Shown: positions 4,739 to 39,835, counted from the first letter of the stretch. The stretch is DNA of 64,000 bases from Candidatus Dormiibacterota bacterium (GCA_963718525.1 OY970355.1:2208001-2272000); one strand, 5' to 3'. Notes: generated by a model not told the origin, from the letters alone. Numbers and translations: made by a program.

Positions 4739-5018
4739 TGTCCACGCGATTTCAAAGGAATCCATCACGCCTGCTCTAGTCGTCATTCCAACCGTTTCCC
4801 GACGAAAGCACTCTAAATCGAACTCAGCACGCGGCGGAAATAAGTGCTGGTCTGGGGGACCAGGGGTCGCAGGTTCGAGTCCTGTCTCCCCGATTCGCAG
4901 CACATTGCAGAGCAGGGCAGCCGTTTCCAACGGATTCCAATGGATTCCAGCTTGCAGGATTCATTCAGCGGGGACTAGTGCTCACTCTCTGATTGATGTT
5001 CTTTCCTGCAAAACCACT
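4739..5018 (+). repeat. att-like junction J1: left arm + tRNA-Pro 3' core + type A right arm
   Basis: CTAGTCGTCATTCCAACC...GAACTCA...GGAAATAAG, core 4847-4893, right arm TTCGCAGC...TTCCTGCAAAACCACT. Confidence 0.9.
4847..4893 (+). tRNA. tRNA-Pro(GGG) 3' fragment (att core, not a full gene)
   Basis: Anticodon arm CTGGT-CTGGGGG-ACCAG, T arm GCAGG-TTCGAGT-CCTGT, acceptor 3' strand CTCCCCGA; no D arm or 5' acceptor strand. Confidence 0.88.
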
Positions 5019-5502
5019 GTGTTCGGCCCCTTAGATACGGTCCAAAGGAAATGTCGTAACCGCTGACAATGTCAAAAGCGATGGAGGTGATTGATGCCGG
5101 GCAGCACCATTACACCGCCGGCGCCGCCGCCGTCGCCGTTCAGCTCCCGGGCTATCCACTAACCGAAGACATCGGCACCGCCACCGGGCCGACCACTGGT
5201 CACGCCGTCGGGGGAGTCGGCAACCCCCACCTCGTCTGGCTGCTCGCCGGCCCACTCTGTCTCCTGGCCGGCCTGGGCAGCGCTCGGGCAAGCAGGCCTC
5301 CCAAATCTAGCCGCGGGTGCCGAGGACTTCCGTGACACCAAGCTGCTGGACGAACAGCAGGCTGTCGGCGTTGGCCCAGTACTCGGCCAGCATCCCGTCG
5401 ACCACGCGGAGCGTGTCGGTGCCGGTGAAGCCCAATTATCGGGATGCGGACCTCTTCACCAGAAACCACTAGTCCAGCTGCGCAAGTCCGTCATGGCGCG
5501 GT

Positions 5503-6390
5503 TCAGGCGGCGTCAACCGTGTTGAAAAAGTCGAGAAGAGCCTTGGCCAACTGCTCGGGCGCCTCCAGTGCTGCGTAGTGGCCGACGCCTTCGAGGCTGA
5601 TTGATCGAACCGGGTCGGCGGCGACCTGCATCATAGTCGCGAAGGTGAACTCGCCACCTCCGGCCCCGATCGCCAGTACGGGCATGCTCAGCTTGCCGGC
5701 GGCGACAACGGACACGATGTCTTCACCTTCTTGGAGCATGGACTGATAGAGGCCGATCGCGCCGCGCCAGCCCCCGGGACGGGAGTAGGTGCGGACAAAC
5801 TCGTCGATGTCGGCTTTGGTGATCGCATCGGGAGTGGCGCTCATGGCCGGGAACGCGAACTGCCCGAGGAACTCGCGCTCGCGTCCGATAAGCAGCATCT
5901 CGGGGATGTTCGGAGCCGCGAGGACGCCGATGTGCCAGCTTCCCCCGTGGGTAATGTCAGCCAGCATCTCGAGGCCGAAGCCCGGCAGCCCCATCTCGAT
6001 CGCGCTGAAACTGAGCACGTCGTCGGGGTGAGTGGCGGCGAGGCGAAGGACGGTCGCCCCACTGATGTCCTGGCCTGTGAGGTGAAGGGGACCAAGGTTG
6101 AGCGATTCGATGAGCAGATGCAGGTCTTCGGTGGAGGCCTTGCTGTCGTAGGTACCTGCCCTATGGTCGGAATCACCGAAGCCGCGGAGATCCACCGCGA
6201 ATACCCGGTGGCTGCTAGCGAGCAGGGGGATGAGCTTGCGGAAGGTCCACCACGTTTCGGGGAAACCATGCACCAGCAGGACCGGAGACCCCTCGCTTCC
6301 CGCTGCCGCGTAGTGCAGCATGGTTCCGTTGACTTTGGCGTAGTGGTGCGTGACCCCAGGCAGGGAAGCGTGCTGTGCTTGAGCGGTCAT
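5503..6390 (-). CDS. Alpha/beta hydrolase (epoxide hydrolase-like)
   Basis: LVHGFPE, DLRGFGDS, nucleophile GQDISG, C-terminal GHY. Confidence 0.88.
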   Translation of the reverse strand: MTAQAQHASLPGVTHHYAKVNGTMLHYAAAGSEGSPVLLVHGFPETWWTFRKLIPLLASSHRVFAVDLRGFGDSDHRAGTYDSKASTEDLHLLIESLNLGPLHLTGQDISGATVLRLAATHPDDVLSFSAIEMGLPGFGLEMLADITHGGSWHIGVLAAPNIPEMLLIGREREFLGQFAFPAMSATPDAITKADIDEFVRTYSRPGGWRGAIGLYQSMLQEGEDIVSVVAAGKLSMPVLAIGAGGGEFTFATMMQVAADPVRSISLEGVGHYAALEAPEQLAKALLDFFNTVDAA

Positions 6391-6420
6391 CTCAGACTCC
6401 TTGTGACAGCCGACCTAATG

Positions 6421-6457
6421 GTCAACCTGGTTGTCCATACTAGACAACCAGGTTGAC
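6421..6457. promoter_or_regulatory. Probable MarR operator
   Basis: Perfect 15-bp inverted repeat GTCAACCTGGTTGTC-N7-GACAACCAGGTTGAC between the divergent hydrolase and MarR genes. Confidence 0.75.
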
Positions 6458-6489
6458 GTTGTCAAGGCGCGTGCGGTAGTCTCCGCTGC

Positions 6490-6990
6490 ATGTCACGCTC
6501 GGGCGCCGATCTCGCACTGCTCCTGCTTGGAGGCTTCCGCGTCCTGGTGGGCGACGCGATGGTGGAGCTTGCCCACCGCGGCTATGAAGACGTCCGGCCC
6601 ACCCACGATTTCGCGATGCGGGCAATCGCCGCGGGTGCCGACAACGCATCGGAACTGGCCCGCCGTCTATCGGTCTCCAAGCAAGCAGCGGCAAAAACCG
6701 TCGCGGTGCTCCGAGAGCGCGGGTACGTGGCACGAGAGGCCGATCCGCTCGACGCACGCCGAAAACGTCTGCACGTCACGGCCCTCGGTTTCGAGGTTCT
6801 GCGAGAAGGCGAAGCCATCTTCGACGAGCTCCGCGACAAATGGAAGCTGCAGATCGGCTCCGACGAGCTCGAGCGTCTTGAATTCCGACTCGCTGCGCTG
6901 GTGGGTGCTTCGCGGATACGTGTCGAGACGCCAGGCTGGATTCCCGATGACCTCGACCAGCCGACATCCGCGTCGCCGCCAAGGATCTGA
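6490..6990 (+). CDS. MarR family regulator
   Basis: wHTH ASELARRLSVSKQAAAKTV, RGYV, DPLDARRKRLHVT. Confidence 0.88.
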   Translation: MSRSGADLALLLLGGFRVLVGDAMVELAHRGYEDVRPTHDFAMRAIAAGADNASELARRLSVSKQAAAKTVAVLRERGYVAREADPLDARRKRLHVTALGFEVLREGEAIFDELRDKWKLQIGSDELERLEFRLAALVGASRIRVETPGWIPDDLDQPTSASPPRI

Positions 6991-7161
6991 AGATGCCGAG
7001 TTTCAGGCGGAGTACGCGGACGCTCCGCATCCCTTCGGAGGTTGAACGGCCGGGGCTGATCGCGCAAGCCACGGCTGGCTCGCCGGGATGGAGCGGGGCG
7101 AGGATGGCATCTCGGCGGCGATGCTGCGGCTGGTCCCTCGAGTGGTATCCATGGACGCTGC

Positions 7162-8043
7162 TCAGACGAAGTAGTGGCCCCGTTCGATGTCCTCGATGAG
7201 GCCGGGGTGGGTGGGCTTCCAGCCCATGAGTTCCTGCGTGATGGTGCTCGAGGCGGGCATGTCGGCGCTGAGCAGGCGCACCAGCAAACCCCCGTACTCC
7301 GCTGCCGGCAGAGACCGGGCCGGCAGGTTCAAGTGCCGGCCGATTACCTCGGCAATCTCGCGGACGGGCACGCCTTCGTCACCGACGGCGTTGAGCACTG
7401 AGCCGGCAGGCGCCCTCTCGACAGCCAGCCGATACAGGTTGGCAGCGTCCTTCACGTGGACGGCGGGCCAACGGTTGCTCCCATCGCCGATGTAGCCGGA
7501 GACGCCCTTCGTCCGGGCCATGGCGATGAGCTGGGGGATGAATCCGTGACGCTCCCCCTCACCGTGCACCGAGCGGGGCAGCATGACGAGGCAGGAGCGA
7601 ACGCCTTTGCCTGCGGCAGCGAGGGCGGCCTGCATGTTGGTGACGCGGGCGGCGATTGGCCCGGCGGCGATGAGTTCGTCGCGTTCCGTTGCGGCTCGGC
7701 CGGGTGTCGCCAGCGTTGCGCCAGAGATCACCAGCGGCTTGCCGGAGCCGGCGAGGCCGCCGATAAACGTCTCGATGGCCGCAGCGTCGGCCCGCGTCGC
7801 AGCCTCGCTCACGCTAGGCACGACGAAGGCGAGGTGGATGACGCCGTCGCTCTCGAGGGTGCCGGCGCGAAGCACCTCGGTGTCGCTCAGGTCGCCGCGT
7901 AGCACCTCTGCACCCAACTCGGCGACGGCGGTGCCGGAGGCGTCCGAGCGCGCGAGTCCGAGGACTTGGTGGCCGGCACTGATGAGTTCGGGGACGACGG
8001 CTGAGCCGATCCAGCCGGAGGCCCCGGTGACGAAGATTCGCAT
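7162..8043 (-). CDS. Atypical SDR / NAD-dependent epimerase family oxidoreductase
   Basis: N-terminal Rossmann MRIFVTGASGWIG; RWPAVHVKDAA. Confidence 0.88.
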   Translation of the reverse strand: MRIFVTGASGWIGSAVVPELISAGHQVLGLARSDASGTAVAELGAEVLRGDLSDTEVLRAGTLESDGVIHLAFVVPSVSEAATRADAAAIETFIGGLAGSGKPLVISGATLATPGRAATERDELIAAGPIAARVTNMQAALAAAGKGVRSCLVMLPRSVHGEGERHGFIPQLIAMARTKGVSGYIGDGSNRWPAVHVKDAANLYRLAVERAPAGSVLNAVGDEGVPVREIAEVIGRHLNLPARSLPAAEYGGLLVRLLSADMPASSTITQELMGWKPTHPGLIEDIERGHYFV

Positions 8044-8105
8044 GAATACTCTCCTCGGTCGTACTTGGGCGGTGAGGATGCTCAGCGCAGACGCCGCGGC
8101 CACGA

Positions 8106-8159
8106 CTGATGCGATCCGGTCGCATCAGGCTACCACACTGATGCGACAACGTCGCGTCA
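8106..8159. promoter_or_regulatory. Two tandem TetR-type operators
   Basis: CTGATGCGA-N5-TCGCATCAG (8106-8128) and TGATGCGAC-N3-GTCGCGTCA (8139-8159) between divergent SDR and TetR. Confidence 0.7.
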
Positions 8160-8173
8160 CCTATGCTGTGCTG

Positions 8174-8788
8174 GTGAGTAGATGGGCGCCGGACGCGCGT
8201 GAGCATCTGGAGGCCGCCGCCCTGGACCTGTTCGTGGAGAACGGGTACGAGGAAACGACCGTCGCGCAGATCGCGGATCGCGCCGGCTTGAACCGCGCCA
8301 CGTTTTTCCGGCACTTCGCCGACAAGCGGGAGGTCCTGTTCGGCGGTGAAGACGTCCTGGCCGAGCTGTTCGCCGAGGGCATCAGGGCTGCCGCGACGGA
8401 TGCCACGCTCATCGAGTGCCTCCAGGCGGCGTTAGCGGCCGCCAGCGTCGCGATGACCCCGCAACAGCGCGCTCGGGCCGCCCAGCGCGTGCTGGTCGTT
8501 GCGGCGAACAGCGAGGTGCAGGAGCGGGGACTGCTCAAGCACGCCCGAATCGCCAAATCGATCAGCACCGCGCTGCGCGACCGGGGCGCAGACGAGCTGA
8601 CAGCCAGCCTGGCGGCGGAAGTGGGGATGCTCGCGTTCTCAATCGCGGTTGAGCGCTGGATGAAGGCGGACCATGACGTACCGTTCGCGGTTCACACGGC
8701 AGCGGCGTTGAGCGACCTACGGGTGCGTGCGGCTGAGATTGGCTCCCCGTCTCGCCGCGCGGCCCTACGCGGGCGTAGCCAAACATAG
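8174..8788 (+). CDS. TetR family regulator
   Basis: AALDLFVENGYEETTVAQIADRAGLNRATFFRHFADK; GTG start at 8174 inferred. Confidence 0.9.
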   Translation: MSRWAPDAREHLEAAALDLFVENGYEETTVAQIADRAGLNRATFFRHFADKREVLFGGEDVLAELFAEGIRAAATDATLIECLQAALAAASVAMTPQQRARAAQRVLVVAANSEVQERGLLKHARIAKSISTALRDRGADELTASLAAEVGMLAFSIAVERWMKADHDVPFAVHTAAALSDLRVRAAEIGSPSRRAALRGRSQT

Positions 8789-9015
8789 GAGACCAACTCA
8801 CTCTTGCTTCCGGTCAAGAGGGACCAGTTCGCTAACCGGAACAGGGGCAGCGGAACCCCGGGCGCCCAATTACTTCAGGCGTCTCCCGACGGGCTGTCTT
8901 AACGCCAGCCGTCCTTCACGGGCAATGTGCCCCTCACTGGAGACCGGCCTCGTTTTTGAAAACCGGCCACCGGAGCGAGACCTGAACGAGACTGGGGTGT
9001 CCTGACTTTGGTGGA

Positions 9016-9789
9016 GTGGGGCGCGTAACCCGTTCTGCCGCTCTGTCGGGTAAGACTTCGTGTTATCGTCCTGTTCATGCGCACGACCGGGACAGTGACA
9101 GCGTGGCACGACTGGCTGAGCGCGCAGCGCGACTTCGGGGTAGGGCGGAGGATGCGGTGACGACGTTACGCCGCGCTTCTCTGCTGCATGACCTTGGGCG
9201 GGCTGCCGTGCCCACCGGGATATGGGAGCGTCCCGGCCGCCTGAGCAGCGCCGAGTGGGAACGCGTACGGCTGCACGCCTACCAGACCGAGCGGATCCTT
9301 GCGCGGTCATCGGCGCTGACGGAAGCCGGGCGCATCGCCGGCATGCATCACGAGCGGATCGACGGCAGCGGGTACCATCGTGGCTCGCGCGCCGCGGAGC
9401 AGGACATCGACTGCCGGCTGCTGGCCGCGGCCGATGCTTACAGCGCGCTCACGGAGTCGCGTCCATACCGGCCCGCATTCAGCCCTGACGCCGCTGCTCA
9501 CACACTGCGCGAGATGGCGCTCGACCCCGAAAACGTCGAGTGCGTGCTGGAGGCGGCAGGCCAGACGCGACGGCGGATACGGTCACGACCCGCCGGGCTG
9601 ACCGAGCGTGAGGTCGCCGTGCTCCGACTCATCGTGCGTGGAATGTCGATGGGCGAGGTTGCCACGGCGCTGCACATCTCGACATCGACCGTGCACACAC
9701 ACCTGGCGCATGTGTACGAGAAGGCGGGAATCTCCACGCGAGCAGCGGCGGCGTTGTTCGCGATGGAAAACGACCTGCTCGATCCCTAG
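9016..9789 (+). pseudogene. HD-GYP-like domain + LuxR HTH regulator, apparently N-terminally truncated
   Basis: LLHDLGR, HHERIDGSGYH, C-terminal LTEREVAVLRL...STVHTHLAHVYEKAG; shorter than expected for this family and the N-terminus looks non-coding. Confidence 0.6.
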
Positions 9790-9853
9790 CAGTTTTCAGA
9801 AATCGACAGAACTGTCGATGGACGAAGGGGCCGGCCGCCGATACGGTCCGGCC

Positions 9854-11248
9854 ATGACAAGCAACAGCGCCCCATCGACCCTCGCGGAAATCCATCGTGA
9901 TAGCGATGACGACAGCCTCACACGACTGCCCGCTGCCGAGATGGCGCGGCTCGTACGGACCCGGACGCTCGACCCCGTCGAGCTCCTCGAGGCGAGCCTG
10001 CGGCGCATCGAAGCGCTGGAGCCGCGCCTCCATGCCTTCGTCGCAGTCCTCGAGCGTTCGGCCCTTGACGAGGCAGAACGCCTGCGCGACCGGTCCGACC
10101 TCGATCGCCTACCGCTGGCCGGCGTCCCGGTTGCCGTCAAAGACAACATCGAGATCGCCGGTGAACCCACGACTCAGGGCTCCCGAGCCACGTCCCAAGC
10201 GCCGGCCGCGGAGGACTCAACCATCGTGCGGCGGCTGCGCGAGGCCGGCGCGGTAATTGTGGGCAGGACGGTCATGCCTGAGCTCGCGATCTGGCCGTTC
10301 ACCGAGCCCGAAGCGTTCCCGGCCCCACGGAACCCGTGGAACCTGGACTGCACGCCCGGCGGGTCGAGCGGAGGTTCGGCGGTTGCCGTGGCTGCCCGCA
10401 TGGCTGCCCTTGCCGTGGGTTCGGACGGCGGTGGATCGCTTCGCGTCCCTGCGGCCTGCTGCGGCATCGTGGGCGTCAAACCGGCACCGGGTCTCGTGCC
10501 CCTGCCCGGGGAGCAAACCGAGCACTGGCATGGCCTCACAGCGTTCGGACCGCTAGCGCGCAACGTGACTGACGCAGCGCTGTTGCTCGACGTCCTCGCG
10601 GAGAGCCATGCCCATCAGGATCCCGCGGCGGCAACGAGCGGACTGCGCATCGCCATCTCGACTCGCCACCCCGTGTTCGGCGTTCGACCATCCCGCGAGA
10701 TTCGCGAGTTGCTCTCGAGCACGGCGGCTGCGCTGGCGGCAGCCGGCCACACCGTTGCATCCGCGGATCCTCGATACCCGATGTTGCCGACGCAGTTCAC
10801 TAGCCGGTGGCTTGCAGGCATCGCTCAGGACGCCACCCATGTCGACATGGCGCGGGTCGAATCACGGACGGCCGCGATGGTCCGGCGCGGGCAGCGAGCG
10901 CAACGCACGGTACGACCTGCGAGCGAGAGCAAGTTCGCCAAGTACATCCAACGTTGGTTGGAGGGATGCGACGTCCTCATCACGCCGGTGCTCGCGTCGC
11001 CTCCTGTGCCGATTGGCAAATGGGGAGGCCGGGGATGGACCTCAACGATGCTCGGCGTCGGTCGGTGGACCTACACGAGCATGTGGAATGTCGCCGGCGT
11101 CGCGGCGGTTGCCATACCGGCCGGCATGACCGGTGAAGGCCTGCCCCTGGGTGTGCAACTCATTGGGCCGGCAGGTTCCGAGTCACTGCTGCTCTCGGTC
11201 GCGACACAGTTGGAGCGGGCGAATCCTTGGCCGACGGCTCCGGTCTAG
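9854..11248 (+). CDS. Amidase signature family enzyme
   Basis: GVPVAVKDN, PGGSSGGSAVAVA, GSDGGGSLRVPA (Ser-cisSer-Lys triad). Confidence 0.92.
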   Translation: MTSNSAPSTLAEIHRDSDDDSLTRLPAAEMARLVRTRTLDPVELLEASLRRIEALEPRLHAFVAVLERSALDEAERLRDRSDLDRLPLAGVPVAVKDNIEIAGEPTTQGSRATSQAPAAEDSTIVRRLREAGAVIVGRTVMPELAIWPFTEPEAFPAPRNPWNLDCTPGGSSGGSAVAVAARMAALAVGSDGGGSLRVPAACCGIVGVKPAPGLVPLPGEQTEHWHGLTAFGPLARNVTDAALLLDVLAESHAHQDPAAATSGLRIAISTRHPVFGVRPSREIRELLSSTAAALAAAGHTVASADPRYPMLPTQFTSRWLAGIAQDATHVDMARVESRTAAMVRRGQRAQRTVRPASESKFAKYIQRWLEGCDVLITPVLASPPVPIGKWGGRGWTSTMLGVGRWTYTSMWNVAGVAAVAIPAGMTGEGLPLGVQLIGPAGSESLLLSVATQLERANPWPTAPV

Positions 11249-11357
11249 AGCCGATGCTCCGAGACCACCCCGGTCAACGCGTCACGATGCAACGACCCGC
11301 CAGAGCATCCGCGCCGGCGACTGGCACACATCAGGTGACCAAACGCACGTCTCGTGA

Positions 11358-11626
11358 TGTCGAAGCGATTCCAGTGGATTCCATCAAACAAGCTCTAGTC
11401 GTCATTCCAACCATTTCCCACAAAACCACTCTAAATCGAACTCAGCACTCATCGGGAAATGAGGGCTAGTCTGGGGGACCAGGGGTCGCAGGTTCGAGTC
11501 CTGTCTCCCCGACGGACGCGCGATTTGATTCGCGGCGAGCGATTAAGGCACGTTGGGCACCGGCGGTGGAACGGATGTAGCGCTGTAACCAGGAATGATG
11601 GCTGTTCCTGCAAAAGGCATCATTCC
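11358..11626 (+). repeat. att-like junction J2 (type B right arm)
   Basis: Same left arm as J1; core 11466-11512; right arm CGGACGCGCGATTTGATTCGCGGCGAGCG...TTCCTGCAAAAGGC. Confidence 0.9.
11466..11512 (+). tRNA. tRNA-Pro(GGG) 3' fragment (att core)
   Basis: CTAGTCTGGGGGACCAGGGGTCGCAGGTTCGAGTCCTGTCTCCCCGA. Confidence 0.88.
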
Positions 11627-11709
11627 CCTGTTAGAGCCGGTGTCGTCCAGAGACCGGCCCGGACGCCGCCACGACTGCAGAGGCAGTCGAACTTGAACCG
11701 CATTCAGCC

Positions 11710-12195
11710 TCAGACCCGCGCCTGGACGGCCGGCTGTCGTATCACGTGCGCCCCAAGTGGGACGACGACGACGGGCAGTTCAGTCTGCAGCGTCAGCCCA
11801 TGGCTGGTGCTCCCGTGGAGCAATTCGGCGAATGCATGCTGGCCTCGGGTGCCCACGACAATCAGCTGGGCTCCCACCTCCGTGGCCACATCTGCGAGCA
11901 CGATGGGTGCTGACCCCTCCTGCACGCGCGACTCCCACGCGACACCGGCCGCCCTGAGAGGCTCGCAGAACTCGGTGATCACCCGCTCCTGCAGGTCCGC
12001 GCTGGTCTGATCGACAACGTCCTGCGGGACATACATCACGTACCCGCCGGCTCCGACGATTGGCGGCGCCAGCGGAGGTGCTACGTGAACGAGGACTACT
12101 CGCGCGCCGAGTTGGCGTGCGAGCTCGGCGGTCCAGGCGACTGCGTTCTGCCCTTGGCTGGATCCATCCGTACCTACGACGATTGTCTTGATCAT
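11710..12195 (-). CDS. Universal stress protein (UspA family)
   Basis: IVVGTDGS, LIVVGTRG, HGSTS, PVVVVP. Confidence 0.9.
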   Translation of the reverse strand: MIKTIVVGTDGSSQGQNAVAWTAELARQLGARVVLVHVAPPLAPPIVGAGGYVMYVPQDVVDQTSADLQERVITEFCEPLRAAGVAWESRVQEGSAPIVLADVATEVGAQLIVVGTRGQHAFAELLHGSTSHGLTLQTELPVVVVPLGAHVIRQPAVQARV

Positions 12196-12357
12196 CAGAC
12201 GACCTCCATGACTCGGTATGCCCCTGTGATACAGCCGTTGGGCCGCACTCGCTAGAGCCGAACGACATCAGGTGTATACGGACCTTTGGCTCCATTAAGG
12301 TCCCAGGAGAGCGTCATGCAAGACTCCGTCGGTCAGGAGCCGTTCGTCACGTCGATC

Positions 12358-19495: not shown

Positions 19496-20138
<643 letters not shown>

Positions 20139-29359: not shown

Positions 29360-29385
29360 GACTTTCGCCTCTTGCAGCTGGTTCG

Positions 29386-30072: not shown

Positions 30073-30073
30073 C

Positions 30074-31828: not shown

Positions 31829-31834
31829 GCTCAG

Positions 31835-32701: not shown

Positions 32702-33136
32702 GGCTTCATTCTCCCTCGTGGTTGGCCGCTGGCATCGAGCCGAGCGATCGTCCCAAAAGTAGTTGCGGCGAATCACGACCGGTCGAGCCGACTTGCGGGG
32801 AAGGCGGGTTTCGATGGTGGAGCAGGGCGCCATGTCAACTCCCTTGAGAAGCGAGCTTGGTCTCGCTACGGCCAGGGTCGGAATACGAACCAGCATTGAC
32901 CTGGGGACCAGGTTTCGGGGCTCTGCACGAGGCGCGATACGACGTTTGTTCGTTGAAAGTCGGCTGGCGTCCAGGCGGGATTCGGACTTAGACGCTACCG
33001 AACGGCGGCCCATGGGTCCTGTCACCGGACCCGCAGCGGCCAAGAGTTTGACGGCGCCGACGGTCACTTCGGCGCGCGGGATGCCCGCGGACGAACGATC
33101 AGCCCGGAAGAGGCGATCAGTTCGGGGGGCGCTGGC

Positions 33137-33343
33137 TGTCGAAGCGAATCCACCGGATTCCAACAAGCACGATCTAGCCGTCATTCCAACCATTTCCCGA
33201 CGAAAGCCCTCCAACTCGAACTCAATCCGCATCGGGAAATAAGGACTAGTCTGGGGGACCAGGAGTAGCAGGTTCGAGTCCTGTCTCCCCGATTCGCAGC
33301 CCTTTGCAGGGCAGTGCAGCCTTGTCCAGCCAATTCCACCCCC
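33137..33343 (+). repeat. att-like junction J4; type A right arm interrupted by IS256
   Basis: Left arm + core 33246-33292 + TTCGCAGCCCTTTGCAGG; remainder of arm resumes after the IS. Confidence 0.9.
33246..33292 (+). tRNA. tRNA-Pro(GGG) 3' fragment
   Basis: CTAGTCTGGGGGACCAGGAGTAGCAGGTTCGAGTCCTGTCTCCCCGA. Confidence 0.82.
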
Positions 33344-34539
33344 AGTGATGTCCCGTAGTGTGGTGTAAATCCGGGGTGACCCCAGCGCTGCCGACGAGGT
33401 AGACAAAGAAGGCCACCGCGGAGTTCTCTTGGAAGCTCTTACCCAAACCAGGAGACCCACGATGGCCCAGAACAGGATGATGCCCCCGGCACTGCTCGAG
33501 CAACTCCAGGGCGCAGACACGGACGTGTTGCGGCGCGTCCTCGAACACGCTATGCAGCGCTTGATCGAAGCCGAGGCGTCCACCCAGATCGGCGCCGGCC
33601 CGCACGAGCGAGCTTCAACGCGCACCACGTACCGCAACGGCTATCGGGAGCGGATCCTCGACACCGGCTCGGGACGCCTCGAGCTGCAGATCCCCAAGCT
33701 GCGCACGGGGAGCTTCTTCCCGACCTTGCTCGAGCCGCGACGGCGTATTGATCGGGCCCTGCTGGCGGCGGTCCAGGAGGCCTACGTGCTCGGCATCAGC
33801 ACTCGCAAGGTCGACGATCTCATGGCTGCGCTGGGCGGCTGCAGCATCAGTCGCAGCGAGGTGAGCAGGATCTGCGCCCTGCTCGACGAGGAGCTCGCCG
33901 AGTTCCGGGAGCGCCCCCTCGATGAGCCGTACCCGTACGTGTGGTTCGACGCCACGTACGAGAAGGTGCGTCAGGGCGCCCGCATCGTCAGCCAGGCGGC
34001 GGTGGTGGCGGTGGGCGTGCGCGACACCGGCGAGAAGAGCGTGCTCGGCCTCGCCATTGGTGCCAGCGAGACCGAGGCCTTCTGGCTGGAGTTCTGCCGC
34101 AGCCTGGCCCGGCGCGGGCTGAGCGGCGTACAGCTGGTCATCTCCGACGCCCACGAAGGGCTGCGCAGTGCCTTGTCCCAGGTGTTCGCCGGCGCGACCT
34201 GGCAGCGCTGCAAGGTGCACTTCCTCCGCAACGTGGCCAGCGCGGTCCCCAAGCTGCACGCGCCGGCGGTGCTCGCGGTGGTGAAGTCGATCTTCCTGCA
34301 GCCCACTCGCGAGACTTCCCGTGACGCCGTGAACCACGCGCTCAGCGTCTTGGAGCCACGCTTCCCAACTGTGGCTGCCAAGCTCCGCGCCGCTGAGGCC
34401 GATGTGCTCGCCTATCTGGACTTCCCGGTCGACCACTGGCGCTCGATCTCTTCGACCAATGCCATCGAGCGCGTCAACGCCGAGCTCGATCGTCGCGCCA
34501 AGGTGGTGGGCATCTTCCTGCGTCTGTACGCTCTCCCGT

Positions 34540-34720
34540 GGCAGTGGCGGAAGCACCGCTGTTGCTGCGAGGCTCCCGTGGGGCCGAGGGTGACCCGGCA
34601 TTTTTCTGTCGAGCCCTCGGGCTCTGACCTGGTTAGGGCCAGTCCCCTCGGTCTTCGCGGGTGGCCGAGTGACCTCATAGCGGCGTGAATACTGAACGGC
34701 AGGAATGTCCGAGGCCATCC
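34540..34720 (+). ncRNA. Predicted IS110 bridge RNA
   Basis: 5' hairpin, target-binding loop and donor-binding loop with guide segments matching the target and the element ends (see findings); ends approximate. Confidence 0.72.
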
Positions 34721-34746
34721 ACCCATCAACACCACGGAGGGTCGGC

Positions 34747-35802
34747 ATGGTCATCATCGGCATCGATTGCCACACAAGGGTTCATGTGGCTGCAGCCATT
34801 GACGGATCGGGGCAGGTCTGTGCGCGCTTCACAGCGGGTGCCAAGGCTGAGGAGCTCGAAGCGCTCACAAGGTGGGCGTGCCAACAAGCAGCCGGCCTGA
34901 TCGCCGTCGAGGGCGCACGAGGCTTTGGCCTCGCGCTCACTCGATGCCTCCTCGCCGCTGGCTTGGAGGTCGTCGATGTCCCAACGCACATGACCGCTGA
35001 CGGGCGCCGTCAGAGCCGCCGTCCGGGAAAGGACGATGAGAGCGATGCGGTGGTCATCGCGCGAGTTGCACTACGTGAACACGACCTGCCGCGGTTGCGT
35101 CCGGCGCATCTTGACTCGGATCTCAAACTGCTGGTGGACGCACGCGATCAGGTTGTTGCAGAAGGCACTCGTGTACGCAACCGGCTGCATGCGCTGCTGC
35201 TCACCGTGTCGCCCGGCTACCGCGATCACACCGGCGCTCTGTCGAGCAAGCGCGCACTCATCGTCGCTCGTCGCTTGGTGCTCCGAGCACGAGCGGCAGA
35301 TCCGGTTCGCTGCCGCCTGGCCCTTGCAGCCATTCGCCAACTCCACGCCATCGATGCTGAAGCAGCCGGGCTGGAGGGCGAGATCAAACAAGCCGTGAGC
35401 GCAAGGCACCCGAAGCAGCTGCTCGCCATTTGCGGTGTGAGCACGCTGGTGGCCGGCAAGCTCCTCGGTGAGGCCCACGACATCACACGCTTCCCGACGG
35501 CGGCGTCGTTCGCAGCCCACGCTGGCGCCGCCCCGCTTCCGGCATCGAGCGGCGTCACGCGGCGACACCGTCTCAACCGAGGCGGCAACCGTCAACTCAA
35601 CCGAGCCCTCTTCACGATCGCCATGGTGCAGGCACGCTGGCACCCTGGAGCGGTCGCCTATCTGGAGCGAAAACGTGGCGAAGGCAAGCGACCCGCCGAA
35701 GCGCGACGCTGCCTCATGCGCCACCTTGCGGGTGTCGTCCACCGCGCCATGTTCCTCGACGCGACCGCGGTCAGCGCGAGTTCGGCCATGCCTGCCGCTT
35801 GA
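34747..35802 (+). CDS. IS110 family transposase / bridge recombinase
   Basis: DEDD RuvC (IGIDCH, AVEG, KDDESDA), C-terminal APLPASSG and RGGNRQLNRAL; GGAGG RBS before ATG 34747. Confidence 0.93.
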   Translation: MVIIGIDCHTRVHVAAAIDGSGQVCARFTAGAKAEELEALTRWACQQAAGLIAVEGARGFGLALTRCLLAAGLEVVDVPTHMTADGRRQSRRPGKDDESDAVVIARVALREHDLPRLRPAHLDSDLKLLVDARDQVVAEGTRVRNRLHALLLTVSPGYRDHTGALSSKRALIVARRLVLRARAADPVRCRLALAAIRQLHAIDAEAAGLEGEIKQAVSARHPKQLLAICGVSTLVAGKLLGEAHDITRFPTAASFAAHAGAAPLPASSGVTRRHRLNRGGNRQLNRALFTIAMVQARWHPGAVAYLERKRGEGKRPAEARRCLMRHLAGVVHRAMFLDATAVSASSAMPAA

Positions 35803-36044
35803 CATAGCGGCGCCCCAACAGCGCCTCACTGCTGCGGCTGTTCACCGCGGTGCTCCAGGACCAGCACGACGAGTGGCAGGACGGCCGCCGTCACTTCAGT
35901 CAGCAGTCGATGGCTCGCGTTTTGCACCCCGACGGTCCGCCCTTGCTCACCAACCCACTCACGGAGGGACTGGTCGCGTAGTTCACCGACGTTGTGAGAA
36001 CTCCACCGAATTCACACCACTACCGGGGACTTGACCCCACCCCC

Positions 36045-36122
36045 TTCCAACTTTCGGGGATCAGTCACTGTGCAGGGACTAGTCCTTATTCGCTAATTGA
36101 TGGCCTTTCCTGCAAAACCACT
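36045..36122 (+). repeat. Distal part of the J4 type A right arm
   Basis: GGGACTAGTCCTTATT...ATTGATG...TTTCCTGCAAAACCACT aligns with J1 4971-5018. Confidence 0.85.
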
Positions 36123-36342
36123 CTAATGTCGTGCGGCCAAACGGCGATGTCCCGAGCGGGGCGCGACGCTCGCTTCGGGCCATTGCTTGGCGCGCCGCGG
36201 TCGGAAATGCGGCTGCGACTGAACATCCGTTCACCCGGATTGAACGCCTTGATGAGTGACGCCAAGGCGACCGGAGTGATGCTCTAGCAACCGGCCCTAC
36301 CGTACTCGGCCTTAATCGGCGGCGAGAGCAAAGGAGGTAATC

Positions 36343-38037
36343 ATGGAACCTCACGATTGCCACCGGATCTGGAGGGGCAGGTCGCGTAAGTTCGCGGCTC
36401 TGGCCGCGGTAATGTTGGGGTCGGCGGTGGTGGGCGCAAGACCTGCCTCGGCGACGACATTCACTGTGTGCGGCAGTGGATGTGCTTACAGTCAGATTGG
36501 TGCTGCGGTCGCAGCTGCGAGCAGGGGCGACACAGTGAGCATCGGCCCTGGCAAATACGTCGGCGGTTTCACGATCGACCAAAGCGTGAGCCTCGTCGGC
36601 GCTGGCGCCCATGAGACGACGATCAGCGGCGGGGGGCCGGTGATCACGGTCGGGAAGTTCGGGGCCAAGACTGAGCCCACAGTCGCGCTCCGCGACCTAA
36701 CGATCACCGGTGGCGTGACGGCGTCGAGCCCGGTGTCGATTGCGTATGTCGCCAAAGCAGGAGTGCTTGCCCTAGGAGGGGGTATCTTCGTCCCGCCCGC
36801 CGCAAAGTTCGCCGCGGGCGCGACTTTCACGGTCAGCGACAGCGTCATCACGGGCAATATCGCCGCAGCGACCGCGTCCGTCGACGCCGGCTTCTCATGT
36901 GGGACGCACGACTGCCGATTCGCCATAGCCGGCGGTGGCGGGATCGACAACTGGGGCCTTCTGACGGTCGAGAACACGATCGTCAGCAACAACGAGTTGG
37001 CAGGAGCGGTCACGAGTGACGCCGACGGAGCCGGTATTTACACGCAGCAAGGCGCAATCACCCTGAAGAACAGCGTCGTGACCGGCAACCGTGCGATGGC
37101 GATCGCTCCGGACGGCCGCTTTGCCGAGGGCGCGGGCATCATGGTCGACACGACCTTCTCGGCCGGAGCTTGCACGCCCTGCACCCTGTCTGTTCAAAAC
37201 AGCATCGTGCGCGACAACAACTCAAGTCTCGTCAACAACACTCTGCCTTCCTCCGTGGGAGCGCAGTCTGGGATGAATGCCAACGCCGGCGGCATACATG
37301 TGGGTGACGGCATTCCCACGACGGTCAAGAACACGGCGATCGATGACAACTCAGCGACTGCAATCGATCGACGAGGCGAGGCGCTCGGCATCGACGCCGG
37401 CATGATCGTCGGGTACAGTCCGCTCATCATGCAGAACACTCAGATCGACGACAACCGGTCGACGACGACAGTGCTGACTTCGACCGATGTGGGGCCAGCA
37501 GGCAGCGCTCTCGAACTCGATGGGGGCGGCACGATCAGCGGCACGAGCATCGATGACAACCTCGCGATCTCAACAAGTTCGGGTGGCTTAGCCGACACGA
37601 ACGGTGGCTTGGCCATTTTCTACTTTGGCAATCTCGGCGGGGCGCAGCTAGTGACCGTGCGAGACAGTGATATCAGCGGCAATGTCACCGAGTCGTTCAG
37701 CAAGACAGGCTCAGCCCAGATCGAGGGCGGTGCGGTCTTCAACAACAGCTTGCTCGTGATGCGCAACGATCGCGTGAGCGACAACGTCGGGCGAGCGGAG
37801 GCGCCGACCGGTGTGGCCCAAGGGGGAGGCACCTGGAACGGGGTCGACGCGAGCACGGGCGCCAGCCCTCCGGCTCAGCTGACCCTCGAGAACACGAGCG
37901 TCACCCACAACGCCCTCGAAGGAGGCGCAGGCGTGACTCTTCAAGGCGGTGGCATCTTCACGGAGTCTCCGGCAACGCTCACGCTCACCAACACGCAAAT
38001 CGCGTTCAACCGCCCGGACCAGTGCTTCGGGTGCTGA
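36343..38037 (+). CDS. Secreted right-handed beta-helix (pectin-lyase-like) protein
   Basis: Signal peptide ending PASA; repeated GGGI and S-x-I-x-x-N motifs; GGAGGT RBS. Confidence 0.75.
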   Translation: MEPHDCHRIWRGRSRKFAALAAVMLGSAVVGARPASATTFTVCGSGCAYSQIGAAVAAASRGDTVSIGPGKYVGGFTIDQSVSLVGAGAHETTISGGGPVITVGKFGAKTEPTVALRDLTITGGVTASSPVSIAYVAKAGVLALGGGIFVPPAAKFAAGATFTVSDSVITGNIAAATASVDAGFSCGTHDCRFAIAGGGGIDNWGLLTVENTIVSNNELAGAVTSDADGAGIYTQQGAITLKNSVVTGNRAMAIAPDGRFAEGAGIMVDTTFSAGACTPCTLSVQNSIVRDNNSSLVNNTLPSSVGAQSGMNANAGGIHVGDGIPTTVKNTAIDDNSATAIDRRGEALGIDAGMIVGYSPLIMQNTQIDDNRSTTTVLTSTDVGPAGSALELDGGGTISGTSIDDNLAISTSSGGLADTNGGLAIFYFGNLGGAQLVTVRDSDISGNVTESFSKTGSAQIEGGAVFNNSLLVMRNDRVSDNVGRAEAPTGVAQGGGTWNGVDASTGASPPAQLTLENTSVTHNALEGGAGVTLQGGGIFTESPATLTLTNTQIAFNRPDQCFGC

Positions 38038-38212
38038 CGGGCGGCCGGCCAACCGCGTGAGCCAGTCCGACTCGCGCGCACCGCGGCGATGGGCAGCGCT
38101 CGCCGGAATTTGCCGCGACATGTTCATGCGGAGCTGGGCCTCGGTGCGACCACAGGAGGACCGTAGTTGTCGGCGCAAATCCGGAAGTGACGGTTCAAGA
38201 GGGGAACTTGCT

Positions 38213-39058
38213 TTGAAAGCGGCTGGGGCTACCGCGGTCGCGGTGCTGCTCGCGCTAGTGACGTCTGCGTGCGGTGGCACAGCCTCAAGCGAGTCATCGT
38301 CGAGCCACGCTCAGCCGGACACGTTGCAGAGGGTGACGTCCACCCTGGACGGCGAGACGACCATTCCTCTCCGGACCCGGTGGATCGCGACACCCCAGCC
38401 GGCTGGCGCCCCAGTGACCGGGGTGGACTTCCTGATCGATGGGAAGCTGATCTGGACCGAACAGTCTGCTCCATATGTCTTTGGGGGCGACGACAATGGC
38501 ACCAATCTCGGCTTCCTGATCACCACTTGGCTTTCGCCCGGCGTGCACACTTTCACCGCTCGTGCCACGGGTGTTGCCGGTAAGACCGTCTCCGATGATG
38601 TGACTGCTAGCGTTGCCGCAGCGCCCGCGCCACCCGCCGCGCTCAAAGGAACCTGGACGCGAACCGTGACCCAGCCAGACATCGAACATGCGGGTGTCAC
38701 CGAAGGGCCGCCGCCGACCGGCCAGTGGCACCTCGTCTTCGATCAGATCGGCGCTTGGGAACTCGACCCCCTCGGTTCCGGCGTCGGGAGCCAGTATGAG
38801 GCTCAGGGCGACACGCTCAACGTCTACGCACCCATTCAGGAAGCGCCGTTCAGTAACGGAATCGGGGGGATCAGCATGTACGGTCACCGCGATCTTGGTG
38901 GGACGGACTGCAACGCGTCGGGGCCGTTCGGTTCCTATCGCTGGTCGGTCGCGGGCAACAAGCTGACCTTGTCTGTGATCAATGAAGGGTGCCCCAACCG
39001 GCAAGCAATCTGGGAAGGTGTCTGGAGCCTTGAGAGCCCGACGACACCTCCGACCTGA
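38213..39058 (+). CDS. Putative lipoprotein with Ig-like domain
   Basis: Lipobox TSAC; VDFLIDGK...APY...SPGVHTFTARA; TTG start inferred. Confidence 0.65.
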   Translation: MKAAGATAVAVLLALVTSACGGTASSESSSSHAQPDTLQRVTSTLDGETTIPLRTRWIATPQPAGAPVTGVDFLIDGKLIWTEQSAPYVFGGDDNGTNLGFLITTWLSPGVHTFTARATGVAGKTVSDDVTASVAAAPAPPAALKGTWTRTVTQPDIEHAGVTEGPPPTGQWHLVFDQIGAWELDPLGSGVGSQYEAQGDTLNVYAPIQEAPFSNGIGGISMYGHRDLGGTDCNASGPFGSYRWSVAGNKLTLSVINEGCPNRQAIWEGVWSLESPTTPPT

Positions 39059-39212
39059 ACCACGTAGACCGGCGGAGGAGGGCGCGGTTGGCGAGAGAAC
39101 TCGAGCAGCCCGTGAGCAGCCCATTGGCGGCGATGGTAGCCACCCGGCGAGTCTCTGCACACTGGACAACGCGCCTCGGCAATTGCGGTTACCGCGTGTC
39201 GCTTCCTCAACC

Positions 39213-39288
39213 GAGTGCAAGTTCGGAGCCGTCAGCGCCTGACGCGAACGGAGTGCAAGTTCGGAGCCGTCAGCGCCTGACGCGAACG
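39213..39288. repeat. Perfect 38-bp tandem duplication
   Basis: GAGTGCAAGTTCGGAGCCGTCAGCGCCTGACGCGAACG x2. Confidence 0.95.
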
Positions 39289-39559
39289 GGCGTCTCCGTG
39301 AGTTCTGTGGCGCTTCGTTTACCGACTGCTAGCCACGGACGGGATCATGGCCGAGGGTGGCTTGACCGATCCCCCGGCTCACGTCTGCCGTCACGAAGAC
39401 CGGCGAGAGCAGCAATCCCCACAGGAGCTTCCTGTCACCAGCCTCATGGCGAACTGAGGGCTGACGCCGGCGGTTGACTCGCCGAGCACGATGCTCATGC
39501 TCAAGAGTGTGGAGCGGGAGAGGAGCGCTATCGGCTTCGGCCTTAAGCGTGCCTGTTGA

Positions 39560-39835
39560 TTTCTTCGCGAATCAAATGGATTCCAATAGCCACGGTCTAG
39601 TCGTCATTCCAACCAATTCGCTACGAAAGCCCTCTAAGTCGAACTCACCCTGAATCAGGAAATAAGGACTGGTCTGGGGGACCAGGGGTCGCAGGTTCGA
39701 GTCCTGTCTCCCCGACGGACGCGCAAGTTGAATTCACAGCGAGCGGTTGCGCGGCGCGTCAGGCGCCCGTTCGGTTAGCGGGGTATACTGGTCTAGTCAG
39801 GAACAATGCCTTTCCCTGCAAAAGGCCTTATTACC
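39560..39835 (+). repeat. att-like junction J5 (type B right arm)
   Basis: Left arm CTAGTCGTCATTCCAACC; core 39669-39715; CGGACGCGCAAGTTGAATTCACAGCGAGCG...CCTGCAAAAGGC. Confidence 0.9.
39669..39715 (+). tRNA. tRNA-Pro(GGG) 3' fragment
   Basis: Identical to the J1 core. Confidence 0.88.

Follow-up and report, generated by a model that had tools for sequence, protein, structure and literature searches.

A tRNA-Pro(GGG)-anchored island of att-bounded, mostly integrase-less units in an uncultured soil Dormibacterota

The 64,000-nt stretch analyzed here (the window; genome positions 2208001–2272000) is the middle part of an additive island, 153 kb long, whose anchor is tRNA-Pro(GGG), in an uncultured soil bacterium of the phylum Dormibacterota (Candidatus Dormibacterota), whose genome is a single-contig MAG. 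The island is divided by junctions, each of which shows the anatomy of an attP site: a P arm of ∼104 nt, the 3′ portion of the tRNA beginning with the anticodon stem, and a P′ arm. In our judgment, this layout probably arose as att-flanked cassettes, most of them non-autonomous, were added one after another at the anticodon loop by site-specific accretion, with an integrase acting in trans. The array is best read as a variant of CIME or tycheposon-type accretion that resembles an integron in function only. This is a known route of genomic-island building, here unusually regular, large, and integrase-poor.

Five junctions lie in the window, all on one strand, and in each a conserved left arm of ∼104 nt leads into 51 nt of the tRNA-Pro(GGG) 3′ part and then into a right arm. 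A 29-nt motif from the tRNA 3′ part has five + strand matches with at most three mismatches (0 expected, from 100 shuffles), ending at window positions 4893, 11512, 31793, 33292, and 39715. An 18-nt left-arm motif likewise matches five times on the + strand, with none expected. A profile derived from the junctions sets their starts at 4739, 11358, 31639, 33137, and 39562; an earlier note on this DNA had described five same-strand composite copies and placed the last start at 39560, so its count is borne out. The tRNA part is found at every full junction and aligns over 51 nt, at 98% identity, with positions 24–74 of tRNA-Pro(GGG), from the anticodon stem to the 3′ end, which is the order of left arm and tRNA part that the note had proposed. 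The junctions are as follows.

4739..4893, + strand: junction J1; left (P) arm at 4739–4842, with 4843–4893 exactly matching the 3′ part of tRNA-Pro(GGG), starting at its anticodon stem
11358..11512, + strand: junction J2, by motif matches, alignment, and profile
31639..31793, + strand: junction J3, with two changes in its tRNA part (alignment)
33137..33292, + strand: junction J4, with two changes in its tRNA part (alignment)
39562..39715, + strand: junction J5, by motif match, alignment, and profile

Neither ARAGORN nor Rfam identifies a complete tRNA in the window, as the earlier note had stated, and the intact tRNA-Pro(GGG) that it predicted upstream is found on the + strand at genome positions 2177129–2177203, 30.9 kb upstream of the window and beginning CGGGGAG. 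The genome carries 12 junctions in total, each on the + strand; they lie between 2180864 and 2330563, in the 153 kb directly downstream of this gene. Among the genome's 47 tRNA genes, tRNA-Pro(GGG) has 11 extra 3′-half copies and every other tRNA at most one of its own; 5′-half copies are found for none. Because the junctions are confined to one 153-kb stretch in a single orientation, with none elsewhere in the genome, they are not MITE-like, and a MITE or SINE-like dispersed repeat, for which the note had suggested looking for scatter in both orientations, is ruled out. More broadly, an explanation by either a tRNA-derived dispersed repeat or an assembly artefact strikes us as vanishingly improbable: the repeat does include a tRNA fragment, but 12 of 12 copies share one orientation and region, and 33 further genomes of the genus, assembled independently, and 113 metagenome stretches show the same architecture.

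The left (P) arms form a single family, in which blocks at least 95% conserved are separated by variable spacers (63 unique copies). The right (P′) arms, which the earlier note had described as one conserved arm, instead comprise at least three families across arrays (A, B, and C), two of which occur in the window: class A after J2 and J5, and class B after J1, after J3 (truncated after 42 nt), and after J4 (split by an IS256-family element). Class A is conserved over ∼200 nt and class B over ∼145 nt, always directly after the junction and always in the same orientation. Class C, the integrase-type arm, occurs without an integrase in the relative G057. The longer right arms in the window are listed here.

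4894..5033, + strand: class B right (P′) arm of unit J1–J2, with three direct (G)ATTCCA-type repeats
11513..11720, + strand: class A right arm of unit J2–J3, ∼200 nt, with a 12–15 bp palindrome around CCTGC
33293..36128, + strand: class B right arm of unit J4–J5, IS-split, with halves at 33293–33338 and 36045–36128
39716..39922, + strand: class A right arm after J5, opening the next unit

The P arm and the class B P′ arms each carry the ATTCCA motif three times, which is only suggestive of repeated sites by which the arms are read. The 5′ strand of the anticodon stem varies across 54 unique readable junctions (CTAGT-type, 28; CTGGT-type, 18; CTAA, six; TTAG, one; TTGG, one), and the anticodon loop and all sequence 3′ of it are essentially invariant. 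When three left arms were folded as single-stranded DNA on both strands, no attC-like fold appeared (Z-scores −0.23 to +1.04 against 200 shuffles). In eight cases a PIN module sits at a fixed 42–49 nt from the left arm.

The cargo blocks between the window's junctions measure 6.5, 20.1, 1.3, and 6.3 kb. Units range from 1.3 to 20 kb, and most are multi-gene, with genes on both strands and their own regulators; units of 1.0–1.3 kb with both arms also exist. The contents, assigned by Pfam except where stated, are these.

1..4738, + strand: distal part of the integrase-bearing unit Je–J1 (7.45 kb), by Pfam and unit borders
47–847, − strand: Crp-type HTH regulator (unit Je–J1)
1088–2188, + strand: sigma-70 (unit Je–J1)
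2243..2554, − strand: 104-aa open frame, weakly excisionase or HTH_17-like, from below-cut-off profile matches
2601–4226, + strand: aldehyde dehydrogenase (unit Je–J1)
5034..11357: cargo of unit J1–J2
5503–6390, − strand: alpha/beta hydrolase (unit J1–J2)
6490–6990, + strand: MarR (unit J1–J2)
7162–8103, − strand: NAD epimerase (unit J1–J2)
within frame 7583–8788: TetR-type HTH (unit J1–J2)
9016–9789, + strand: HD-GerE regulator (unit J1–J2)
9608–11248, + strand: amidase (unit J1–J2)
11710..31638: cargo of unit J2–J3 (20.1 kb)
17278–23811: V-type ATPase genes (unit J2–J3)
24302–26491: P-type ATPase (unit J2–J3)
31794..33136: unit J3–J4 (1.34 kb), with its truncated class B right arm at 31794–31835
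31835–32233, − strand: Abi_C-domain gene (unit J3–J4)
33344–36043: IS256-family element, by transposase and IS copies
∼34517–35813: IS110-family element inside the IS256-family element, by transposase
36129..39561: cargo of unit J4–J5, two ORFs
36343–38037: ORF of 564 aa, no family (unit J4–J5)
37949–39058: ORF of 369 aa, no family (unit J4–J5)

The 104-aa frame at 2243..2554 is a candidate directionality factor; it matches PF12728 at 20.2 bits (E 0.0027) and TIGR01764 ‘excise’ at 19.5 bits (E 9e-4), both below cut-off, and has no Pfam match at E ≤ 0.001. Sub-blocks of unit J1–J2 turn up separately in other genomes. Unit J2–J3 also holds a Usp, two ABC exporters, a PNPOx-like protein, a second Usp, an esterase, and a SHOCT protein (all by Pfam), together with a 401-aa protein whose family is not recognized; it is probably composite, since metagenome contig L173 has a junction ∼0.8 kb after the P-type ATPase. 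The IS256-family element interrupts the class B arm of unit J4–J5 at about arm position 46/52, and its IS110-free joint is present in contigs. The last 3.4 kb of this unit (unit 10 of the source genome, G000), junction included, are 93% identical to unit 1 of the relative G050. Segments of the unit opened by J5, which runs 76 kb to junction Jy in the source genome, are found in at least three different G050 units, so that this unit is a fusion. Among the 32 contig pieces listed (838 more lie beyond these), none bridges a junction, and the order of units in the window is therefore without independent confirmation.

The earlier note had called the array integrase-free, which holds for the window, where a PF00589 profile search of 2208001–2272000 finds no integrase, but not for the array as a whole. 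The tyrosine recombinase that the note had suggested seeking upstream is present: the single PF00589 gene of the source array (genome 2205410–2206408) begins 122 nt after a junction, Je, that lies 2.9 kb upstream of the window, and is itself 1.6 kb upstream of window base 1. Five units stand between the intact tRNA-Pro(GGG) and this gene, and an N-terminal remnant of an integrase follows the distal junction Jy. Since unit Je–J1 ends in an ordinary left arm, that of J1, the integrase unit is tied to the cassette family; Pfam recognizes no replication gene in it. The integrase is a two-domain, Xer-like protein whose best NCBIfam model is the XerA-like NF040815 (100.8 bits against a cut-off of 220). 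Identity with IntI was ruled out (integron integrase TIGR02249, 36.8 bits against a cut-off of 265). Its AlphaFold model (pLDDT 85.9) has a disordered segment at residues 1–27, a helical core-binding region at 29–113, and a catalytic region at 144–327; an N-terminal arm-binding domain is seen neither in this AF2 model nor by Pfam, which reports PF00589 only.

Apart from unit Je–J1 and the Jy remnant, no integration or transfer genes were found in the units of the source array by six-frame searches with PF00589 and PF00239, tblastn at E ≤ 1, or Pfam analysis of ORFs, and the integrase remnants that the earlier note had proposed looking for inside the window's blocks are absent. The other units hold ordinary cargo (regulators, transporters, a V-ATPase operon, a PIN toxin, Abi_C, and IS elements); ∼70 array ORFs examined by Pfam encode only cargo, besides IS transposases. 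Each unit might instead have come as an autonomous integrase-bearing island or ICE/IME that later lost its integrase and transfer genes (a CIME by decay), with no movement in trans, a history that we regard as unlikely. Three-step decay is the textbook origin of CIMEs (PMC5704250), and the Jy remnant, the class C arm in G057, the unit fusions, and the truncated or IS-split arms all fit it. However, tblastn searches of 386 kb of arrays from five relatives (38 full junctions, E ≤ 1) and of 494 kb of 80 metagenome loci (89 full junctions, E ≤ 1e-3) turn up no integrase-like sequence, units can be as small as 1.0–1.3 kb, and the class A and B arms, conserved over 145–200 nt, directly abut unrelated cargo. 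Independent deletions would each have had to stop at the same base, unless one integrase-less derivative spread, which amounts to mobilization in trans.

Of 42 genomes of the genus, 34 contain full junctions; a sample of 150 other genomes from the phylum contains none. The junctions are co-oriented within every contig, as judged from at least 27 contigs with two or more of the matches listed, and one relative's contig carries 16. An orthologous integrase is found in 7 of the 41 other genus genomes, so most arrays are now without a recognizable recombinase, although these genomes are incomplete MAGs (61–92% complete). In seven of eight loci of relatives, 123 nt separate the intact tRNA-Pro(GGG) from the start of the orthologue (71–89% identity). 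The element that carries it encodes a TraA-type relaxase helicase domain (TraA or RecD-like helicase) and is 94–97% identical across species, against 79–85% for the flank of those species. A core-genome tyrosine recombinase of the host might move the cassettes, by analogy with XerCD-exploiting elements, but we consider this very unlikely. Arrays do persist where the integrase orthologue was not found (34/41), and the island integrase is itself Xer-like; against this, the missing orthologues can be put down to incomplete MAGs, no host recombinase emerged as a candidate, the cassettes target a tRNA anticodon stem-loop rather than dif, and the island integrase sits at the site with constant spacing.

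Cassette order, which the earlier note had proposed comparing between strains, differs between relatives: shared segments occupy different array positions between species and are 88–99% identical, against 78–88% for the 7-kb core flank. For example, units 3 and 4 of G002 match units 7 and 9 of G057 at 99% and 96%, with one more unit intervening in G057. Many of the breakpoints in homology between genomes fall within units or at a distance from the core; other recombination is therefore also at work. In metagenome contig L158, one 4-kb unit combines the hydrolase of unit J1–J2 with the last gene of the 76-kb unit. These breakpoints, mosaic units such as that of L158, and the lack of an integrase in most genomes would suit a homologous-recombination hotspot, in which the junctions are relics and RecA-type exchange between ∼155-nt repeats and shared cargo follows DNA uptake, without site-specific recombination. 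We find this improbable, as it leaves unexplained the origin of one arm-core-arm layout at every border and accounts neither for the conserved arm blocks beside variable spacers nor for the fixed PIN-to-left-arm spacing. As a secondary process, homologous recombination is compatible with site-specific accretion. Given the unit fusions and the class C arm without an integrase in G057, both decay and homologous recombination contribute.

Under site-specific accretion, most units are probably non-autonomous cassettes of 1–20 kb (both att arms and cargo, no recombinase), captured, and exchangeable across species, via an integrase in trans. The Xer-like tyrosine integrase would cross over in the anticodon loop, with the core CTGGT-CTGGGGG-ACCAG; the incoming circle would bring its own tRNA 3′ part, leaving the tRNA gene intact, and each new unit at the tRNA would shift earlier units distally. 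The supplier in trans may be the integrase unit of the source array or the relaxase-helicase-bearing integrative element that adjoins the tRNA in some relatives. As the integrase lacks an arm-binding domain, we conjecture that accessory proteins read the conserved arms. After capture, the array is reworked by IS insertion, junction deletion (unit fusion), and homologous recombination. Contigs of four runs, which break at junctions, contain no solid excision, circle, or cassette-deletion form; the single backward joint (39645 → 33235) has a depth of 2.2 and 12 foreign letters. Mobilization in trans is what we infer. The earlier note's interpretation is partly supported.

According to PMC5704250, a CIME is an att-flanked element without integration or transfer genes, in tandem with a same-site integrase element and with the 3′ end of the target gene duplicated at its borders. 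The array shares with the ICE/IME and CIME tandems of Streptococcus and Streptomyces att-bounded units that repeat the target-gene 3′ part and lack integration and transfer genes. The tandem with a cognate integrase element is matched in the source genome by unit Je–J1 but was not found in the arrays of five relatives. Described tandems comprise two or three elements, whereas the source genome alone has 12 junctions and a single contig of a relative has 16, arm families are conserved, most arrays lack any integrase, and units go down to 1 kb. Prochlorococcus tycheposons, as described in 10.1101/2020.12.28.424599, integrate serially at an island-proximal tRNA and move older elements distally, leaving partial tRNAs and degenerate remnants along the island; they carry adaptive cargo genes, and the elements are few in comparison with the islands. 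Their definition there rests on elements that carry an integrase and replication modules, and neighboring elements were seen ‘in a few cases’. Serial tRNA-site integration, distal shift of older units, partial tRNAs, remnants, adaptive cargo, and the scarcity of elements relative to islands are common to both, but here, in another phylum, both arms are kept in nearly all units although an integrase is absent from them, and no replication module is seen in the source integrase unit.

As in a lambda-type attP, the core lies between arms of ∼100–200 bp with repeated short motifs (ATTCCA), although the integrase here, as modeled, appears to lack the N-terminal arm-binding domain of that system. 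An Xer-exploiting element (IMEX) does not fit, the site being the tRNA-Pro(GGG) anticodon stem-loop and not the chromosomal dif. Sedentary chromosomal integrons (superintegrons) carry long, co-oriented, recombinase-free cassette arrays with one site family, one integrase for many cassettes, and toxin-antitoxin cassettes, and the present array shares all of these features. The marks of integrons are the IntI integrase, attC sites that fold as single strands, an integrase fixed beside attI, and cassettes that are mostly single promoterless ORFs. In contrast, the sites here are double-stranded attP-type arm-core-arm sequences on a tRNA gene without an attC-like fold, the integrase is not IntI, and the units are mostly multi-gene with their own regulators. 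The place of the integrase relative to the primary site differs between arrays, five units from the tRNA in the source genome and 123 nt from it in seven of eight loci of relatives. The integron-like platform proposed in the earlier note thus stands as a functional analogy and not in its machinery or cassette structure.

We advance only tentatively the broader possibility of a genus-wide gene-capture platform on a tRNA att site, functionally like an integron, in which integrase-less cassettes of 1–40 kb, each with a full bipartite attP (P arms of one 104-nt family, P′ arms of three or more families), are excised and inserted at tRNA-Pro(GGG) as independent units by a simple Xer-like recombinase without an arm-binding domain. 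If this is true, the recombinase would be only a transient visitor, on a conjugative or mobilizable element, and arrays of a dozen or more cassettes, amounting to at most ∼6% of the genome, would persist and be traded between species even without an integrase in the cell.

The 12 junctions of this genome form a single series anchored on one tRNA gene. Each consists of a left arm, a 51-nt 3′ part of tRNA-Pro(GGG) and a right arm, and marks the border between neighbouring units. The five copies reported in the earlier note were recovered as five tRNA 3′ motifs and five left-arm motifs, all on the plus strand of the window, where chance would give none. A whole-genome search with the first of these, J1, places them as numbers 6–10 of the series (Ja–Je, J1–J5, Jy and Jz), which is not dispersed over the genome but runs in a single orientation, on the plus strand, from 2180864 to 2330563 of the 3.34-Mb, single-contig genome (66% GC, tmRNA and tRNA-SeC present). 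The intact tRNA-Pro(GGG), predicted to lie upstream of the window on the plus strand, is at genome bases 2177129–2177203 and begins with CGGGGAG. The window itself was said to lack both a complete tRNA and an integrase. In agreement, ARAGORN and Rfam (gathering threshold) find no complete tRNA or RNA family there, and a six-frame PF00589 scan of the genome has zero matches inside the window.

As a control, the two halves (3′ and 5′) of each of the 47 tRNA genes served as queries against the whole genome. There are 11 additional 3′ halves of tRNA-Pro(GGG) and a single one each of tRNA-Gln, Lys, Arg, Gly and Thr, and no extra 5′ half was found for any of the 47 genes. The single extra halves are ordinary one-element islands of about 7–61 kb. 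They are at genome positions 1027124 (tRNA-Lys), 1511613 (tRNA-Arg), 2746485 (tRNA-Gly(GCC)), 3255038 (tRNA-Thr) and 682928 (tRNA-Gln); PF00589 integrases adjoin the genes for tRNA-Lys and tRNA-Arg, and beside tRNA-Gly(GCC) there is a PF00589 remnant. G051, a relative's single-contig genome, was tried as an empty-site reference. There, tRNA-Pro is followed by a right arm of class A (defined below), an IS256 and a tRNA-half relic, and nothing further downstream matches this genome; G051 therefore does not fix where the array ends distally.

Comparison of 63 unique copies of the junction, taken from this genome and its relatives, shows that the left arm is built of blocks at least 95% conserved with variable spacers between them. 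The main conserved block is TCTAGTCGTCATTCCAACCA..AC.AAA..CTCTAAATCGAACTCA, and the arm contains three direct copies of an ATTCCA-type motif. Identity with the tRNA begins at the anticodon stem. Among the 54 unique copies readable there, the 5′ strand of the stem is of the CTAGT type in 28, of the CTGGT type (as in the tRNA) in 18, CTAA in six, and TTAG and TTGG in one each, while the loop CTGGGGG and all sequence 3′ of it are practically invariant across junction copies. Tyrosine integrases commonly exploit tRNA anticodon loops for crossover, and strand exchange within the loop would leave a variable stem beside an invariant loop. The stem halves would serve as core sites for strand exchange; DNA left of the crossover would belong to the left unit, and the right side, including the tRNA 3′ part, to the right unit. 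An attC-like site was rejected: the left arms show no single-strand folding signal.

Two further observations concern the left arm. Its last ∼25 nt (window 4820–4846 and the equivalent in all junctions; ..TCGGGAAATAAGG) loosely resemble the tRNA 5′ acceptor strand plus positions 8–10, and an upstream piece, GAACTCAGC, resembles the D-arm; these pieces could be leftovers of a full tRNA copy that attP once contained, or the likeness could be coincidental. There may also be a second left-arm family. At window 39668, two contigs in each of three sequencing runs (X1–X3) have loose ends at which the tRNA 3′ part is joined to other upstream sequence; the consensus in X1 and X3 starts CCAACACGAAACAC and differs from the known left arm. 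Several genomes of the genus (G009, G049, G051 and G020) have 3–6 tRNA-level matches each, without this known left arm.

The right arms fall into several families. Class A, after J2 and J5, is about 200 nt long and contains the palindrome ATGATG.CTTTT-CCTGC-AAAAG.CATCAT. Class B, after J1, J3 and J4, is about 145 nt long with three further ATTCCA-type repeats, and class C lies ahead of the integrase, at Je. The intact tRNA in this genome and an internal junction in the relative G004 are followed by a fourth type. A distal ∼50-nt block around TTTTCCTGCAAAA is common to all classes. The J3 right arm ends after 42 nt, and that of J4 is interrupted by an IS256-family element, itself bearing an IS110-family insertion. 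Because every border has the arm–core–arm form that tandem integration predicts, and because all junctions face one way, the intact gene is proximal and a matching integrase is at the site, the array was almost certainly built by successive rounds of site-specific recombination at the anticodon loop of tRNA-Pro(GGG).

The upstream tyrosine recombinase that was sought lies 1.6 kb before the window, and no serine recombinase was found in the array. A candidate excisionase frame lies within the window.

Genome 2205410–2206408: tyrosine integrase, the sole one in the array; 332 aa, PF00589 E 1e-27, start 122 nt after Je
Window 2243–2554, minus strand: candidate excisionase frame; 104 aa, two sub-threshold matches to related excisionase-type models, no Pfam match

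The integrase is nearest to XerA-/XerC-like recombinases (PDB, NCBIfam), under every family cut-off, and its relatives number just 12 cluster representatives (E≤1e-30) among 1.84 billion. In an AlphaFold model (pLDDT 85.9), a disordered N-terminus is followed by a helical core-binding domain and the catalytic domain, with no arm-binding domain predicted. At Jy, the left arm is fused to an integrase remnant, 136 nt with 87.5% identity to the integrase gene's 5′ end. In other Dormibacterota assemblies, an orthologue (71–89% identity) starts 123 nt past an intact tRNA-Pro(GGG) in seven of eight loci, which are syntenic with this genome upstream of the tRNA (69–84% identity) and unrelated to this array downstream of the integrase. 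That downstream DNA is 94–97% identical among relatives, against 79–85% for their core flank, and encodes a Cro/CI-type HTH protein and a TraA-type relaxase helicase domain. Since this downstream DNA encodes the helicase domain and exceeds the core flank in identity, the integrase of those relatives is part of an integrative element, conjugative or mobilizable, that has been spreading recently. Five units separate the tRNA from the integrase unit in this genome; later tRNA-proximal integrations would have pushed that unit distally.

Junctions are widespread in the genus. A sequence-only covariance model, with a best E <1e-20 defining a full junction, matches 41 of the 42 genomes; full junctions occur in 34, and the rest have tRNA-level matches or none. 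Strands agree in all 27 contigs with at least two matches, among the matches listed. One contig of G050 has the intact tRNA and then 16 junctions over 200 kb, while G002 has the tRNA and then five junctions in 17 kb, with a class A arm directly after the tRNA in both. The 24 junctions of G050 should not be taken as one genome's count, because the bin may mix two strains. Its core flank upstream of tRNA-Pro is present twice (contigs C13 and C14, 84% and 92% identical to the query), each with its own array. Outside the genus, no full junction was found in 16 sister-family genomes or in a sample of 150 genomes spanning 98 genera of the phylum (E≤1e-15). The exact gapped junction pattern occurs in 113 metagenome stretches and in no IMG/VR viral contig.

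The evidence for mobility is indirect. Array segments common to several species sit at other positions with other neighbours. For example, the final 3.4 kb of unit J4–J5 corresponds to G050 unit 1 (93%), and about 17 kb past J5 to G050 unit 12 (87–90%). Similarly, G002 units 3 and 4 match G057 units 7 and 9 (98.8% and 96.4%), between which G057 has a 4.7-kb unit, and a 5.8-kb unit is common to G003 and G057 (92%). The 7-kb core flank of the same genome pairs is only 78–88% identical; since the shared array DNA is more alike than this flank, it is younger than the species splits. Many between-genome matches start or stop within units, and in some cases right arms have been swapped. Parts of at least three G050 units are brought together in the 76-kb stretch past J5, one mosaic metagenome contig (L158) has another combination, and a second (L173) has a junction inside what is one unit here. 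Match ends inside units, swapped arms and these mosaic contigs speak for homologous-recombination shuffling of relic sites and against a purely unit-wise process. Such shuffling clearly operates, as does decay; that it explains the array we consider quite improbable.

Ten sequencing runs contain window DNA, none on record as RNA, and four of one study (X1–X4), available as contigs, contain 70–94% of its sequence words. On window 21501–41500, the listed contig pieces of these four stop at junctions. Their contigs also contain a joint from 34516 to 35813/4, which is an IS110-free IS256, and joints from 33301 and from 31817/31820 to 36045, which are IS256-free forms; IS-free forms occur in contigs of X1 and X4. 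A joint from 31793 to 39677 is weak or ambiguous (side 23), and one that goes back, from 39645 to 33235, is also weak (depth 2.2, 12 foreign letters); neither counts here as evidence for or against excision. Circular metagenome contigs were left out of the evidence because an exact repeat of at least 51 nt can falsely close assembly graphs.

An orthologous integrase (87–89% identity) is present in just seven of the 41 other genomes of the genus. It is absent from the arrays of five relatives (386 kb, 38 full junctions, E≤1) and from 80 metagenome loci (494 kb, 89 full junctions, E≤1e-3). Pure decay of autonomous islands, each once with an integrase of its own, is an unlikely account of the units: no integrase remnant lies beside 127 junctions outside this genome, the arm families are conserved, very small units exist, and segments have been exchanged between species. 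For the same reasons, and because both arms are conserved family-wise directly against unrelated cargo, we favour, with moderate confidence, the reading that non-autonomous cassettes, captured and exchanged in trans, account for most units.

Among about 70 array ORFs, Pfam identifies regulators (Crp, sigma-70, ECF sigma, MarR, TetR, GntR, HD-GerE), histidine kinases, ABC and ABC-2 transporters, a CLC channel, a V-type ATPase gene set, a P-type ATPase, Usp proteins, dehydrogenases, hydrolases, an amidase, an Abi_C protein, a PIN toxin and three IS families, and no integration, replication or transfer genes outside the Je–J1 unit. PADLOC gave zero matches for 10 unassigned cargo proteins. The recurring cargo gene and the IS elements are as follows.

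Genome 2182334–2182732: PIN-domain toxin gene (1054–1449 of sequence L011), and at seven other places
Window 33344–36043: IS256-family element (Mutator transposase 33429–34688), interrupted by an IS110-family element at about 34517–35813
Genome 2183123–2184526, inverted: second IS256 copy, uninterrupted, directly past the class A arm of Jb
Genome 2188855, 2282276 (minus strand) and 2314419: three IS481-family copies in the array, 99.7–99.8% identical, 315-aa transposase

The PIN gene ends 42–49 nt before the left arm in eight of the 142 left-arm junctions examined and is a recurring toxin–antitoxin cassette, reminiscent of the stabilising toxin–antitoxin cassettes of chromosomal integrons. A recurrent ∼108-nt element occurs at window 8992–9099, at genome 2181992–2182095 and in many relatives (up to 100% identical in G050). 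In other genomes it is about 0.7–0.8 kb away from a junction and corresponds to the beginning of the PIN toxin–antitoxin module; the window keeps just this piece of the module, immediately ahead of the HD-GerE gene. Window 17278–26491 carries, as cassette cargo, the V/A-type ATPase set (I, c, A and B subunits recognised) and then the P-type cation ATPase. L173 has this block at 93–95% identity, with a junction soon after the P-type ATPase.

The closest systems described in the portions of the sources drawn on here are CIME-ICE/IME accretions (PMC5704250) and additive tRNA-anchored islands built by tycheposons (10.1101/2020.12.28.424599). Relative to both, as those portions present them, this array differs in unit number, regularity and the retention of complete arm families, and its integrase is scarce, simple and Xer-like, in another host phylum. 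Tandem tycheposon cases were compared by the preprint's text, and its supplementary list may hold closer arrays. We found no papers on such arrays in Dormibacterota and no published work on the mobile elements of this phylum, only incidental papers. The array resembles a chromosomal integron in its one recombinase for many cassettes, its co-orientation and its toxin cassette, whereas tests for an IntI-type integrase, for attC-like folding and for cassettes that are mostly single promoterless ORFs all fail; of the integron-like platform proposed in the earlier note, only the functional logic is shared. The note's interpretation as a whole is partly supported: judged from sequence comparison, capture in trans is a plausible and testable mechanism, somewhat favoured here.

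Dormibacterota are abundant, uncultured bacteria of soil and permafrost. This locus shows one genus storing and exchanging accessory genes at a single tRNA gene, among them stress proteins, transporters, regulators, an extra V-type ATPase and toxin or abortive-infection genes. Genomic islands have an integrase of their own per element, and integrons a single integrase for many cassettes. If cassettes do move in trans, the system would fall between the two, and the logic of one recombinase and many cassettes would have evolved on ordinary double-stranded attP sites. With its well-defined arms and core, the locus gives an uncultured phylum a recombination system that is open to direct testing.
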